64,000 nt of DNA from Dehalococcoidia bacterium. GTDB lineage: Bacteria > Chloroflexota > Dehalococcoidia > Plut-88900. Of this stretch, positions 33,353 through 57,069 are shown one piece after another. Within the stretch, counting starts at the first letter, position 1. Each line of letters opens with the position of its first letter. The translations under genes and the position numbers were made by a program. Under the pieces are notes generated by a model. The model made no database searches. It was not told the DNA's origin and saw only the letters and a program-made list of their open reading frames with translations. The stretch is taken from the NCBI GenBank assembly GCA_965197585.1, contig OZ240215.1, forward strand, positions 3,072,001 to 3,136,000. Reading direction: 5' to 3'.

Positions 33353-33427
33353 TGGTAGCGGGGGTTGGATTCGAACCAACGACCTTCGGGTTATGAGCCC
33401 GACGAGCTGCCACTGCTCCACCCCGCG
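33353..33427 (-). tRNA. tRNA-fMet (CAT), initiator
   Basis: CGCGGGG..GGGCTCATAACCC..GTTCGAAT..CCCCGCTACCA; C1:A72 mismatch, three G-C pairs in anticodon stem, encoded CCA. Confidence 0.97.
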
Positions 33428-33502
33428 TCGTAAGCGGTGGGTATGAGCCCGAACCGCGGTGTTGAATAGAGAATTAGAACGTTCTGCACGTGTCATAATG
33501 CA

Positions 33503-36636
<3,134 letters not shown>

Positions 36637-53072: not shown

Positions 53073-53483
53073 CTAGGCAGGCTTGAACTTGGGCAGCGAG
53101 ATTTCGTCGGTTATGTCGTCGAAGACGATCTCTACGGCCATCCCTATAGAGACGTTCTCGGGAGTCGGGTCGTCGATAACGATGTTTGTAGGGATTCGTA
53201 CGCCGTCTTCAAGCTCCACGAGGGCGGCCACGTAAGGGCACACTTCGCGGAACGGGGGCGGGGACCGATGCACGATTGTGAAGGCGTATATGGAGCCCTT
53301 GCCGCTGCTCTGCGTCCAGGAAACGTCCTTGGTGTGACAGGTGGGGCAGAAGTCCCGGGGGTAGAAGTAGGCCTTGTCACAGGCATTGCACTTGCGGAAC
53401 CACAGCTCGTGGGCCTTGGCCTTCTCCCAGTAGAAGTCGGACTCTGGCTGGGGAACGGGGACGGGAAGGTTGTAGTCTGCCAT
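53073..53483 (-). CDS. Zn-ribbon/OB-fold protein (DUF35/ChsH2 family)
   Basis: CNAC..YPRDFCPTC, SSGKGSIY, LVELEDG; AGGAG RBS. Confidence 0.92.
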   Translation of the reverse strand: MADYNLPVPVPQPESDFYWEKAKAHELWFRKCNACDKAYFYPRDFCPTCHTKDVSWTQSSGKGSIYAFTIVHRSPPPFREVCPYVAALVELEDGVRIPTNIVIDDPTPENVSIGMAVEIVFDDITDEISLPKFKPA

Positions 53484-53521
53484 ATTTATTCTCCTCTTAC
53501 GAAGTAGCTCGCCTGTTCCTG

Positions 53522-54667
53522 CTAGTCGGAGGCCAGGACAATGGTGCCGGTGGAGGACAGGGTGCCGCCCGTGCCGTTGACCAGGCTGGTCTTGGCCCCC
53601 GCGACTTGCCGGTCTCCGCACTCGCCTCTAAGCTGCCGGGTGGCCTCCAGCAGGAGGAACATGCCGTACATGCCGGTGTGGCAGTAGGAAAGTCCGCCGC
53701 CGTTGGTGTTCATTGGAAAGTCGCCGCCGGGAGCAGTGCGCTGGTTGGCGACGAAGTCGGGGCCCTCGCCCCTTCCGCAGAAGCCGAGGGACTCGAGGGT
53801 GATGAGGACCGTATAGGTGAAGGAGTCGTAGATCATGGCGAGGTCGATGTCGGAGTGTTTGAGCCCCGCCATCTCCAGCGCCCGAGGCCCGGTCTCCCTG
53901 GCTATAGTCGAAGCGAGGTCATTCTGCTGCAGGATACCCTCGCCGTGGTCGTGGCCTTCGGCTGCCCCGAGGATCCAGACGGGACTCTTCTTAGTGCTCT
54001 TGGCCACCGCCGCCGAGGTGATGACCGTTGCGCCGCCGCCATCGGTGACGAGGCAGCAGTCGGGGAGGTGGAAGGGCCAGGAGATCCAGCGGGAGTCGTG
54101 GTAGTCCTGGATGGACATCGGGTCCTGCATGTATGCCTTGGGGTTGAGCTGCGCCCACTTACGGGTAGACACGGCTATCTCTGCCAGGGCGTTGCGAGTG
54201 CGCTCCTCGCCGAACTCGTGCATGTAGCGTGTGCAGGCAAGGGAGTAAGCGTGAGGTTCGATGACCAAGCCGTAGGGGTGTTCATACTGTGCGATTGGCA
54301 TGTTGGGGTCGTCCCCCGCGTAGGCCCGGGTGCTCCGCCCTGCCTCGCCGTGCACGATGAGGGCTACGTCGATAAGCCCTGCGCTGATAGCGGCAAGGGC
54401 GTGCTCCACGTAGATGACGAAAGAGGAGCCGCCGACGTTGGTGCCGTCAGTGTACTTGGGGGTGAAGCCCATGTACTCGGCCATGTTATAGGGGGACGGG
54501 CCGGCGACGAATAGCCCGTCGACATCCGAGAGAGAAAGACCGGCGTCGTCCAGGGCGTTGAATGCCGCCTCCGAGCCATGCTGGAGACGGGACTTGTTGG
54601 GTACTTTGCCTATTTCGTCGGACTCGTCCACTCCGACGATCGCGGCCATACGGGACAGATCTGCCAT
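53522..54667 (-). CDS. Thiolase-superfamily protein (SCP-x/Ltp2-like), close paralog
   Basis: Same motifs; AGGAGG RBS before ATG 54667. Confidence 0.9.
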   Translation of the reverse strand: MADLSRMAAIVGVDESDEIGKVPNKSRLQHGSEAAFNALDDAGLSLSDVDGLFVAGPSPYNMAEYMGFTPKYTDGTNVGGSSFVIYVEHALAAISAGLIDVALIVHGEAGRSTRAYAGDDPNMPIAQYEHPYGLVIEPHAYSLACTRYMHEFGEERTRNALAEIAVSTRKWAQLNPKAYMQDPMSIQDYHDSRWISWPFHLPDCCLVTDGGGATVITSAAVAKSTKKSPVWILGAAEGHDHGEGILQQNDLASTIARETGPRALEMAGLKHSDIDLAMIYDSFTYTVLITLESLGFCGRGEGPDFVANQRTAPGGDFPMNTNGGGLSYCHTGMYGMFLLLEATRQLRGECGDRQVAGAKTSLVNGTGGTLSSTGTIVLASD

Positions 54668-54768
54668 TCTTGACCTCCTGTGACTAACGGGGTGTGCCAT
54701 GACAGGGGCGCGTGTCCCCCACTCCATAGGCAGCGAAGTTGGTAGTATTCCCCCAGAAAGCGGCCCTT

Positions 54769-54797
54769 ATTCTATAGTCGGGGGGTGGGGGTGTCAA
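54769..54797 (-). promoter_or_regulatory. Sigma70 promoter TTGACA-N17-TAGAAT for the thiolase operon
   Basis: Read directly on the minus strand. Confidence 0.75.
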
Positions 54798-54886
54798 TTT
54801 GGGGGGAGAATGGGCTTCTGGACTTAGAGGGAAGGGGCCGCGTAGAATGGCCTTATAAACCTCGTTACTAGCATCAGGAGGAGACT

Positions 54887-55246
54887 ATGGCTGCACCCGA
54901 CATCACTCTGTACACAAAACGCTCCTGAACTTCCTGCAGAAGAGCGAAAGAGTTTCTTTCGCAGAAGGAGATCGACCACATAGAGAGGGATATCTTCAAG
55001 GAACCTTTGTCTCGGGAAGAGATCGAAGGCTTGCTTGAGCTCATCCCGATGGACAAGCTCTTCTCCCGCAAGAGCAGGGCAGTGAAGAAGCTGGGCCTGG
55101 ACGTCGACGCCCTCTCTGACGCCGAGAAGCTGGACCTCATGAGCCAGGAACCGGCACTGCTCAAAAGACCCATCGTCGTAGGTGGGTCAACGCCCGTATT
55201 GGGCTACGATGTGGCGGCGCTCGAAAGTGCAGTCGGCGGGAGTTGA
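54887..55246 (+). CDS. ArsC/Spx/MgsR family thioredoxin-fold selenoprotein (UxxC; TGA at 54926-54928)
   Basis: AGGAGG RBS; MAAPDITLYTKRS-U-TSCRRAKEFL continues in frame into ORF 55007-55246 ending P.LLKRPIVV. Confidence 0.88.
54944..54962 (+). promoter_or_regulatory. Candidate bacterial SECIS hairpin
   Basis: GCGAAAGA-GTT-TCTTTCGC perfect 8-bp stem; G-starting loop 23 nt after the UGA. Confidence 0.65.
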
Positions 55247-55276
55247 ATAGACAGGTAGCGCTAGACAGGACACACC

Positions 55277-56134
55277 ATGACTAACGACAACAAGCACGAC
55301 AGGCCCGACCTACTGGTCGAGACAGATTGGCTCGCCGAGCACCTGGACGATCCTAATTTAAGGATCGTGGACATGGGGCCCATCGACGCCTATAAAAGGG
55401 CCCACATCCCCGGCTCGATGGGTCTGAACCGCGACTACTTCAAGGACCCGGACAACAGAGTCCTGGTCATGGGCCCCGACCGGTTCGCCGAGGCAATGAG
55501 CGCAGTCGGCATCGGCGATGAGCACGACGTGATCGCCTACGATGATTGGGGTGGCCTCTACGCCGGCCGTCTCTGGTGGCTCCTCCGCATGCACGGCCAC
55601 GAGAAGGTGCGGGTGCTGAACGGCGGATGGAACAAGTGGATTGGCGAGGGTCGGCCCGTCGAGGCCGTGCCCCTGTCTCTGTATCACAGCGGGAAGCCCA
55701 TGACTCCCCACAGGCCTGCGTCCTTCACCGCCAACCCGGAGCCTGAATACAACTGCACCCTCGACCAGCTGAAGGATCGGCTCCACGATTCCGAATGGGT
55801 CACCCTGGACGTCCGCACCGACGACGAGTACACGGGTGCCCTGACCCGAGGCAACAAGCGCGGCGGTCACATACCGGACACCATCCACATCGAGTGGACA
55901 AAGGCTGTCACCGACGACGAGTTCAGGACTTTCCTGCCGCCAGCGGAGCTAAGGGAGCTCTACGAGTCGGCGGGGATCACTCCCGAGAAGAAGGTAGTCA
56001 CCTACTGACAGGGTGGAATACGTGCGGCGCACGTAATGTTTGCCCTCCGACTCCTCGGCTACGAGAACGTCAGCAACTACGACGGCTCAATGGGTGAGTG
56101 GGCCAACCGGGACGACACCCCTATAGTAACTTAG
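55277..56134 (+). CDS. Tandem-domain rhodanese/sulfurtransferase (SseA/TST-like) selenoprotein (TGA at 56006-56008)
   Basis: HIPG, VRVLNGG, VVTY-U-QGGIRAAH, then the signature NYDGSMGEW before TAG at 56132-56134. Confidence 0.92.
56010..56046 (+). promoter_or_regulatory. Candidate bacterial SECIS hairpin
   Basis: Upper stem TACGTGC-GGC-GCACGTA (56019-56035) on lower stem AGGGTGGA/TTTGCCCT; loop 17 nt after the UGA. Confidence 0.7.
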
Positions 56135-56888
56135 GCCCGACAACGTACTTCAGGTTGGCCGTCGTATGACGGGCCACCTCCTCGACGGTTATGCCGCGCA
56201 GCTCGGCTATCTTCTCAGCGACGCGCAACAGTTGGGCCGGTTCCAACGGGTTCTTCTTTCTCCAAGGCTGGGGAAAAGAGTCGGTCTCGATGACCATGTA
56301 CTCAAGGGGCAGGGACTTGACTATCGGATGGAGGTGGTGAAGGCTGAGGAGCGTCTTCGAAAAGGAAACATAGATTCCCATGTCCATGCACTCCTCGGCG
56401 ATTCGCTGGTCGGCCACGAAGTAGTGCATTATAGCCCCGACCTCGTAGACCCGCTCCTCCTTAAGAATGCGTAGGCAGTCCCAATAGGCCTCCCGGCTGT
56501 GGAACACGACAGGCAGGCTCAGGTCCCGGGCCAGGCGCAGATGCTGGCGGAAGACGTCCTGCTGCACCTCCCTGGGCGCCTTGCTCTTGAAATAGTCCAG
56601 ACCCGGTTCGCAGATCATGAGCACCTTCTCGCTGGACTTGGCCAGACTGCGAAGCTCATCGAAGGTGGCCTCGGTGATGTTTAGGTGGGCGGCGTGGGGA
56701 TGAATGCCGACACCTGCATAGATGTCGGGATACTCCTCGGCTATCTGTACGGCGGCCCTGGAAGATTCCAGAGAGCTTCCGGCAGTGATGATCCTCCTAA
56801 CGCCAACATCCCTGGCGCGCTGCACGACCTCCGGGAGCTGAGGCCCATAGTCCTCTAAATGAGTGTGACTATCCGATAAATCGAGCAT
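56121..56888 (-). CDS. tatD: TatD family hydrolase
   Basis: DSHTHL, GIHPH, EPGLDY, HSREA, IETDS. Confidence 0.9.
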   Translation of the reverse strand: MLDLSDSHTHLEDYGPQLPEVVQRARDVGVRRIITAGSSLESSRAAVQIAEEYPDIYAGVGIHPHAAHLNITEATFDELRSLAKSSEKVLMICEPGLDYFKSKAPREVQQDVFRQHLRLARDLSLPVVFHSREAYWDCLRILKEERVYEVGAIMHYFVADQRIAEECMDMGIYVSFSKTLLSLHHLHPIVKSLPLEYMVIETDSFPQPWRKKNPLEPAQLLRVAEKIAELRGITVEEVARHTTANLKYVVGPKLL

Positions 56889-57069
56889 CCGGGACCTCTC
56901 TTCCAAAGTTATCGATGGATCCTGTTAGTATGAGCGCAGAGGCGTGGGACAACGTTAAGCTTTCTGAAAAATGAGCGGTCATATCTGCTTAGGCATTCGA
57001 GAAGGTACGCAAGCGCGGGTGTCCGAATCTTCTGTCCTGCCTTGTCAGCAACTGTATATGTCAGGTAGC

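Follow-up and report, generated by a model that had tools for sequence, protein, structure and literature searches.

Within a 64,000-nt stretch of DNA from a Dehalococcoidia bacterium (the window: positions 3072001–3136000 of contig OZ240215.1, GenBank assembly GCA_965197585.1; the genome is a single 3.43-Mb contig; G+C 59%), we identified two adjacent genes that, judging by their sequences, are genuine selenoprotein genes: gene 1, for a small redoxin of the ArsC/Spx fold, and gene 2, for a two-domain rhodanese (sulfurtransferase). The selenocysteine (Sec, U) reading appears sound for both, with an in-frame UGA at the redox or catalytic cysteine (Cys) position, a hairpin resembling a selenocysteine insertion sequence (SECIS) after it, and complete Sec machinery in the genome. 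Our preferred reading, held with moderate confidence, is that the two genes are transcribed together and that their pairing is a rather loose or an accidental one.

As seen in Table 1, the genes have the same orientation, are separated by a 30-nt spacer and contain one in-frame TGA each. The first-pass annotation of this DNA, made from the letters alone, had described just such a pair; its coordinates were borne out on the sequence, and its sequence description was correct in each detail checked. The terminal TGA of gene 1 is a true stop, and a fold check found no hairpin 3' of it. Under translation table 11 the open reading frames (ORFs) at the locus are of 79 aa for gene 1 and 243 + 32 aa for gene 2. 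In a collection of 5.8 billion proteins, 19 out of 20 matches to gene 1 are pieces of 65–138 aa corresponding to 44–79% of its length, and the remaining match, a Cys form, is complete at 119 aa (43% identity, named 'arsenate reductase family protein'); both results agree with the earlier remark that standard gene calling yields only fragments here.

Table 1. Features of the locus (window positions) and other genes with an in-frame TGA in the same genome (approximate genome positions)
Feature	Position	Strand	Details or basis
Gene 1, predicted ArsC/Spx-fold UxxC selenoprotein, 119 aa	54887..55246	+	ATG 54887, stop TGA 55244-55246
Gene 2, predicted two-domain rhodanese (sulfurtransferase) selenoprotein, 285 aa	55277..56134	+	ATG 55277, stop TAG 56132-56134
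Gene 1, putative Sec codon 14 (U of U-T-S-C), in-frame TGA	54926-54928	+	TKRS-U-TSCRRA
Gene 2, putative Sec codon 244, catalytic Cys position, active-site loop U-Q-G-G-I-R, in-frame TGA	56006-56008	+	VVTY-U-QGGIRAA
SECIS-like hairpin 1, 8-bp stem GCGAAAGA/UCUUUCGC, loop GUU	54944-54951 / 54955-54962	+	fold, covariation
SECIS-like hairpin 2, upper stem of 7 bp, loop GGC	56019-56025 / 56029-56035	+	fold, covariation
SECIS-like hairpin 2, lower stem	56010-56017 / 56039-56046	+	fold
Promoter-like site TGGACT, 18 nt, TAGAAT (54843-54848)	54819..54848	+	consensus scan; putative function
Ribosome-binding site of gene 1, AGGAGGAG	54876-54883	+	read from sequence
Other selenoprotein genes of the genome	~102970, 112801, 648356, 1081975, 1523511, 1537403		in-frame TGA
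Other selenoprotein genes of the genome, continued	~2154038, 2156008, 2199001/2199097, 2525822, 2836126, 2931949		in-frame TGA

The search for selA, selB, selD and tRNA-Sec that the first-pass annotation had suggested found all of them in the genome, each above its curated cut-off: tRNA-Sec (65.8 bits; tRNA-SeC with anticodon tca according to ARAGORN), SelA (449.7 bits), SelB (369.6 bits) and SelD (385.4 bits), the SelD gene itself containing one TGA. For the conservation of the TGA codons we used a class sample of 201 Dehalococcoidia genomes, in which a single TGA is found in 52 of the 57 ArsC-like matches (the other five have none) and in each of the best 21 rhodanese matches. The TGA column is constant across the translated fetched loci of both families. 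In the Cys forms among the fetched loci, the gene 1 column holds the first Cys of CxxC (four Cys forms), and the gene 2 column gives TYCQGGIRAAH in place of TYUQGGIRAAH (six Cys forms). Coding sequence is conserved on both flanks of the TGAs: in relatives, gene 1 keeps its start codon and ribosome-binding site, and gene 2 the 41 codons that follow its UGA. An alignment of 24 gene 1 sequences has Y9, U/C14, C17, R34, E45, R94 and P95 invariant. Conserved TGA/Cys pairs, which the first-pass annotation expected in relatives, are thus found in the same column for both genes, and in independent assemblies, so the TGAs are not peculiar to this one. Among four read runs, all of them given as assembled contigs, contigs from X1 (which may be the source sample) cover 55794–56134 with 0 differences, including the TGA of gene 2; the TGA of gene 1 was not among the pieces listed.

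A hairpin with an apical loop starting with G follows each TGA, as had been noticed at first reading, and covariation supports both hairpins. We compared 24 homologues of each gene, using the consensus rules for SECIS spacing and loops. For hairpin 1, 91.7% of the cells are paired, as compared to 34–65% (maximum 64.6%) when the 3' partners are slid; two-sided (compensatory) changes occur at four of the eight pairs, and the covariation score was reached by none of 500 shuffles. The upper stem of hairpin 2 is 94% paired, and one of its pairs covaries (C-G in 13, A-U in 8). Among the Sec forms, 21 of 25 rhodaneses and 18 of 26 ArsC-like genes have the complete stem; it occurs in none of the Cys forms (0/6 rhodaneses, with at most 4 of 7 pairs; 0/4 ArsC-like genes, with at most 3 of 8 pairs). 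Since the Cys forms have no such stem, even those rhodaneses that encode the same IRAAH peptide, the hairpins appear to be tied to the UGA and not to the protein sequence. What argues for these predicted elements is the comparison across genomes rather than single-sequence energy.

We note that the peptide AKEFLSQK after the UxxC motif (window 54944–54962; L097–L126 in our numbering) is near-identical between the Sec forms of Dehalococcoidia and of Smithella/Syntrophales, the ArsC-like family being present in Syntrophales too, and 17 of the 20 homologues inspected have U. Since this peptide is encoded by the same nucleotides as the SECIS stem, it seems to be held constant by the RNA element, or else the gene moved between phyla.

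The TAGAAT −10 element proposed near 54843 was found there. Both hexamers of the promoter-like site, and the AGGAGGA of the ribosome-binding site of gene 1, are invariant in all eight aligned genus-level genomes, in four of which the sequence further upstream is unalignable. A scan for terminator-like sites found none on the + strand in the spacer between the two genes, which would be co-transcribed from this one conserved promoter.

Families of the two proteins

Gene 1 matches the ArsC superfamily (PF03960; 63.8 bits, gathering cut-off 24), and its best NCBIfam match is TIGR01617 (Spx/MgsR; 88.9 bits, cut-off 75.05). It scores below the cut-offs of the narrower Spx models (NF002459, NF009885 and NF009210), of the ArsC family (seleno)protein NF041106 (32.5 bits, cut-off 85) and of the glutaredoxin-dependent arsenate reductase TIGR00014 (40.1 bits, cut-off 106). 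Eight relatives of gene 1, from Dehalococcoidia, Smithella, a cyanobacterial metagenome-assembled genome (MAG) and Pyrinomonadaceae, behave similarly: seven score 34–44 bits against NF041106 and for one (L079) no match is listed. TIGR01617 is the best model for all nine proteins and is passed by six of them. On these scores, the gene 1 group looks like a sister group of the NF041106 kind, without a curated model of its own. The closest sequences in the PDB are Spx proteins (E 1.2e-19). The AlphaFold model of gene 1 (predicted local distance difference test, pLDDT, 86.1) aligns with Spx at a template modelling score (TM-score) of 0.84–0.85, with 36% identity in the fold alignment and a root-mean-square deviation of 1.6 Å; other ArsC-family structures are nearly as good (YffB, TM-score 0.83–0.86), and all reach at least 0.72, so the fold search does not separate Spx from other ArsC-family structures.

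In gene 2, two stretches match PF00581 (129 bits), corresponding to two rhodanese domains. Of the proteins in the PDB, the rhodanese 1UAR of Thermus thermophilus is most similar to it (E 1.4e-49), mycobacterial thiosulfate sulfurtransferases also being close; in the alignments, U244 occupies the position of the catalytic Cys that 1UAR and 3HWI have in the loop of their C-terminal domain. Gene 2 is not covered by any curated NCBIfam selenoprotein model; the best match is the 3-mercaptopyruvate sulfurtransferase (MST) equivalog NF008557 (134.9 bits, below its cut-off of 250), and the loop U-Q-G-G-I-R is unlike the MST loop. Together with PF00581, U-Q-G-G has the U-x-x-G form that is tabulated for rhodanese selenoproteins (PMC13188914). 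When read through, the protein has one Cys besides Sec244, distant from the active-site loop.

Sec forms of ArsC-like and rhodanese proteins, which the first-pass annotation gave as already reported, are indeed in published tables. A 2005 study of the Sargasso Sea lists 'arsenate reductase' (COG1393, UXXS) and 'rhodanese-related sulfurtransferase' (COG2897) selenoproteins (PMC1088965), and reviews of 2022 and 2026 tabulate an 'arsenate reductase-like protein' (COG1393 / NF041106, UxxC) and five forms of rhodanese selenoproteins, two of them UxxG (PMC9312934, PMC13188914). Gene 2 resembles the rhodanese-related sulfurtransferase selenoprotein (COG2897; 'rhodanese-like form 2/4, UxxG', PMC13188914) in having PF00581, Sec at the catalytic Cys, U-x-x-G and, following it, a SECIS hairpin with a G in the apical loop (PMC1088965, PMC13188914), and would be assigned to this published family by motif and domain. 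Gene 1 shares with the arsenate reductase-like selenoprotein (COG1393, UxxC; PMC9312934, PMC13188914) the ArsC fold, an N-terminal U-x-x-C and a length of ~110–120 aa, but differs in that it and its eight relatives are all under the NF041106 cut-off and match TIGR01617 best. Gene 2 therefore seems to fit the UxxG rhodanese kind, and gene 1 seems to fit the UxxC ArsC-like kind broadly, outside its curated model. BSepDB (PMC13326102) and the lists of the 2026 review may already include exactly these proteins.

Distribution of the gene pair

Genes 1 and 2 are neighbours in all 11 genomes of one family-level clade (this genome and L087–L096), and the adjacency is kept down to 55–65% protein identity. 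The gap between them is ~19–45 nt in 8 of the 11 genomes and ~270 and ~545 nt in two others. In L087, whose gene 1 is 95% identical to ours, a ~1.9-kb stretch (L087:4358–6235) lies between the intact ArsC-like and rhodanese genes and holds the gene of a 394-aa AAA_21/AbiEii-like ATPase (L087:4422–5606). Outside the clade, we examined 36 full-length ArsC-like loci with up to 4 kb on either side and saw no rhodanese relative; in 20 rhodanese loci with flanks of 1.5 kb there was no ArsC-like gene, and no gene recurs within 1.5 kb of the Sec-rhodanese in more than 2 of these 20 loci. The conservation of gene order suggested by the first-pass annotation therefore holds within the clade and not at the loci examined elsewhere. 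The downstream TatD gene is syntenic in 10/10 loci of the clade relatives, and the adjacency of genes 1 and 2 may therefore be inherited synteny. In the literature searched (titles, abstract openings and some passages), we did not find the pairing described.

In other Dehalococcoidales (L100, L103, L112, L125, L128 and L130), the Sec ArsC-like gene is found in a conserved co-oriented block, with a 177-aa protein without Pfam match upstream, a Staygreen-family protein (PF12638) downstream, and DegV and heliorhodopsin nearby; these four neighbours give no functional clue to a redox partner.

Selenoprotein genes are frequent in the genome and in the class. SelB is found in 140 of the 201 genomes of the class sample, and Dehalococcoidia MAGs with 46–49 selenoproteins are recorded according to BSepDB (PMC13326102). 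Our genome has at least 15 selenoprotein genes, counting family-supported candidates, SelD and genes 1 and 2. The whole-genome TGA screen behind this tally is a crude codon-usage method that gave 51 candidates and missed gene 1 and SelD, whose N-terminal pieces are short, and only candidates with family support were taken into the tally: three of the UGSC family (one scanned, two identified via the common GDUGSC context), DsbA-like, thioredoxin-NHL, GrdA, GrdB-family, a second GRDB-like, an FtrB double-selenoprotein, two peroxiredoxin-like and SelW-like. Candidates L170, L171, L178, L183 and L186 of the screen have no family match. With at least 15 such genes in the genome, two of them side by side are not very improbable by chance.

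The presence of GrdA and GrdB suggests that this genome encodes a reductase of the glycine/sarcosine/betaine type. We also note that the genes of a short-chain dehydrogenase (PF13561) and of a CoA-transferase (PF01144), at ~219843 and ~923030 respectively, each contain an in-frame TGA with good coding signal on both sides.

Alternative explanations

According to the preferred reading, each in-frame UGA would be read as Sec by SelB and Sec-tRNA(Sec), recruited by the hairpin that starts 13–18 nt downstream. U14-x-x-C17 of gene 1 would cycle between the selenol/thiol and an intramolecular selenenylsulfide, making the protein a selenol-thiol oxidoreductase, and Sec244 of gene 2 would take sulfane sulfur from a donor, forming an Se-S(H) intermediate, and hand it to a thiophilic acceptor. 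The UxxC redoxin is a possible acceptor or re-reductant of the rhodanese; it would end as the selenenylsulfide, which the reducing systems of the cell would then return to the reduced state. The ArsC-like and rhodanese Sec/Cys families are distributed independently over Dehalococcoidia, and the two genes would have become neighbours in the ancestor of one family-level clade. We infer this chemistry, as well as the co-transcription and any coupling of the two genes, and nothing in the data calls for an obligate, dedicated pair.

Several points weigh against this reading. Selenium incorporation itself is something that we infer from sequence. In single-sequence folding the two hairpins are only modestly better than shuffles (z −1.5 for gene 1 and −1.4 for gene 2), and both lie within coding sequence, where the constraint on the protein accounts for part of their conservation. 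Both genes, or the junction between them, are spanned by RNA-library contigs at an identity of ~91–92%, so these stem from relatives; they cannot prove a single transcript, and RNA libraries can hold DNA. On the side of the pairing, the tight spacing of ~19–45 nt in 8 of the 11 clade genomes, together with the shared promoter, may point to a tighter coupling than we assume, and so may co-occurrence in the class sample: a TGA-bearing rhodanese is found in 41 of the 52 genomes with a Sec ArsC-like gene vs 23 of the 149 without, where ~24 would be expected instead of 41 given the 140 SelB-positive genomes, a count that ignores phylogeny and is based on the best 150 of 276 rhodanese matches.

The first-pass annotation went further in this direction and proposed a coupled selenium-dependent module; on such a reading the UxxC redoxin would be the specific partner of the Sec-rhodanese in a dedicated sulfur/selenium relay, attacking the Se-S(H) intermediate or selenenylsulfide, freeing sulfide or relaying sulfur, and then being re-reduced. 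This is possible but rather doubtful. The two selenoprotein genes and the conserved promoter they have in common stand, as do their co-orientation, the 30-nt distance, the adjacency in all 11 clade genomes over the range of identities given above and the positive co-occurrence. The one other Cys of gene 2 is far from the active-site loop, so an external reductant or acceptor would be needed, and two-domain sulfurtransferases pass sulfane sulfur to thioredoxins, glutaredoxins and glutathione, which accept it with high affinity (PMC7995614). However, the adjacency is confined to one clade (0/36 and 0/20 loci elsewhere), where the TatD gene is conserved in 10/10 relatives' loci as well and the neighbourhood may be plain inherited synteny; the ATPase gene separates intact genes 1 and 2 in the closely similar L087; the number of selenoprotein genes makes chance adjacency not very improbable; and the co-occurrence is confounded by lineage.

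By analogy, a coupled redoxin-rhodanese sulfur relay is plausible. The working analogy that we propose is the thioredoxin/glutaredoxin-sulfurtransferase system (Arabidopsis STR1/STR2, PMC7995614), in which a tandem rhodanese is likewise combined with a small CxxC-type redoxin; here, unlike there, both partners would use selenium, the redoxin would be of the ArsC/Spx fold and not a classical thioredoxin or glutaredoxin, and the partnership is suggested by gene order in one clade only. Another known close pair of selenoprotein genes is GrdA/GrdB, found in this genome at ~2.154 and ~2.156 Mb, but these two proteins belong, as subunits, to a single enzyme complex that has been characterised. To our knowledge, no biochemical link of that sort is known for an ArsC-like/rhodanese pair.

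A role of the pair in selenium trafficking is improbable. Here selenium, and not sulfur, would be what the rhodanese binds or mobilises, the redoxin would act as reductant of selenite or of selenotrisulfide adducts, and SelD would be fed by both. Rhodaneses can carry selenium in vitro, and the genome invests heavily in selenoproteins (at least 15 genes, a general point only). Gene 2 also has a weak match to ExtH, the rhodanese of selenite/tellurite operons (NF040901), but its 43.8 bits are far under the cut-off of 200. The pair, at 3.127 Mb, is distant from selD (3.357 Mb), selA (0.392 Mb), selB (1.695 Mb) and tRNA-Sec (3.199 Mb), and SelB is present in 140 of the 201 genomes, as compared to just 52 with a Sec ArsC-like gene.

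It is highly improbable that gene 1 is a selenium version of an Spx-type regulator, i.e. an RNA-polymerase-binding redox switch with Sec for Cys10 that would respond to persulfide or oxidative stress and regulate the rhodanese gene downstream or a wider set of genes. TIGR01617 is the best NCBIfam match (88.9 vs 75.05), and Spx is the nearest solved sequence and fold: in the comparison with Bacillus subtilis Spx (PDB 1Z3E, 3GFK, 6GHB), U14xxC17 of gene 1 falls exactly on C10xxC13, U14-T-S-C17 aligns with C-T-S-C (so that the CxxC is present, with Sec for its first Cys), the RPI motif is common to both, and basic residues of gene 1 align with Spx R60 and K62 (for their roles see PMC2801614). Gene 1 differs in a two-residue gap at the 'dg' of Spx ('...tedgtde...'), counted from chain numbering as D51-G52; G52 is essential for binding the alpha C-terminal domain of RNA polymerase (PMC2801614), and the Gly52 contact is thus missing. 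Moreover, gene 1 has 119 aa vs 131–132 aa in the Spx chains and is without the C-terminal tail, and it comes from a non-Firmicute lineage, whereas conservation of Spx has been described for Gram-positive bacteria (PMC2801614). Other ArsC-family structures such as YffB fit the model almost equally. There is thus only a slender chance that gene 1 is the first selenocysteine-based Spx-type switch, a small protein that binds RNA polymerase or is regulatory in another way and is co-transcribed with the Sec-rhodanese that it controls or that charges it; if so, its U14-C17 selenenylsulfide would sense persulfide or oxidant far more sensitively than a dithiol. We provisionally class gene 1 with the selenol-thiol oxidoreductases, on an ArsC/Spx fold, rather than with the Spx regulators.

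The idea that the TGAs are sequencing errors or inactivating mutations in pseudogenes, for which the bare presence of stop codons speaks and nothing more, is effectively refuted by the conservation data (the same TGA column in dozens of independent assemblies, with protein conserved on both flanks), and the covarying hairpins, the complete Sec machinery and the identical X1 contigs, even if X1 may be the source sample, argue against it too.

Neighbouring features and significance

Downstream, the TatD-family gene (56121–56906, −) converges on gene 2, their 3' ends overlapping by 14 nt. Upstream, a near-consensus promoter-like site (TTGACA-17-TAGAAT, 11/12; window 54769–54797, −) is directed away from gene 1 and faces a thiolase-like gene (53522–54727) and a ChsH2-type OB/zinc-ribbon gene (53073–53621). 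Within gene 2, contig depth goes up ~tenfold or more at window 56069–56115 in four runs, over the conserved C-terminal rhodanese motif (NYDGSMGEWAN region); with its many loose ends, this rise is cross-mapping from the rhodaneses of other organisms and not expression. Other features include a 23S rRNA gene and a tRNA-Met gene within window 33353–36636 (−). Over the whole genome, stop-to-stop ORFs of at least 350 codons, a set that contains some shadow ORFs, end in TAG (777) more often than in TGA (452) or TAA (354), despite the G+C of 59%.

Both genes are new, mis-annotated representatives of known selenoprotein kinds, and their operon is a clade-specific arrangement. With Sec use common in the class and both kinds already tabulated, this result is expected rather than surprising to a specialist. 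Neither gene is captured by a curated NCBIfam selenoprotein model, which means that automated pipelines keep missing both of them across Dehalococcoidia and Syntrophales; with dedicated models, one covering the UxxC group that resembles Spx/MgsR and one the two-domain UxxG rhodanese, the fragment annotation would be cured. For the biology of these bacteria, a catalytic Sec in a rhodanese implies an Se-S sulfane intermediate of so far uncharacterised chemistry, and the clade-specific operon supplies a natural candidate acceptor for the Sec-rhodanese.

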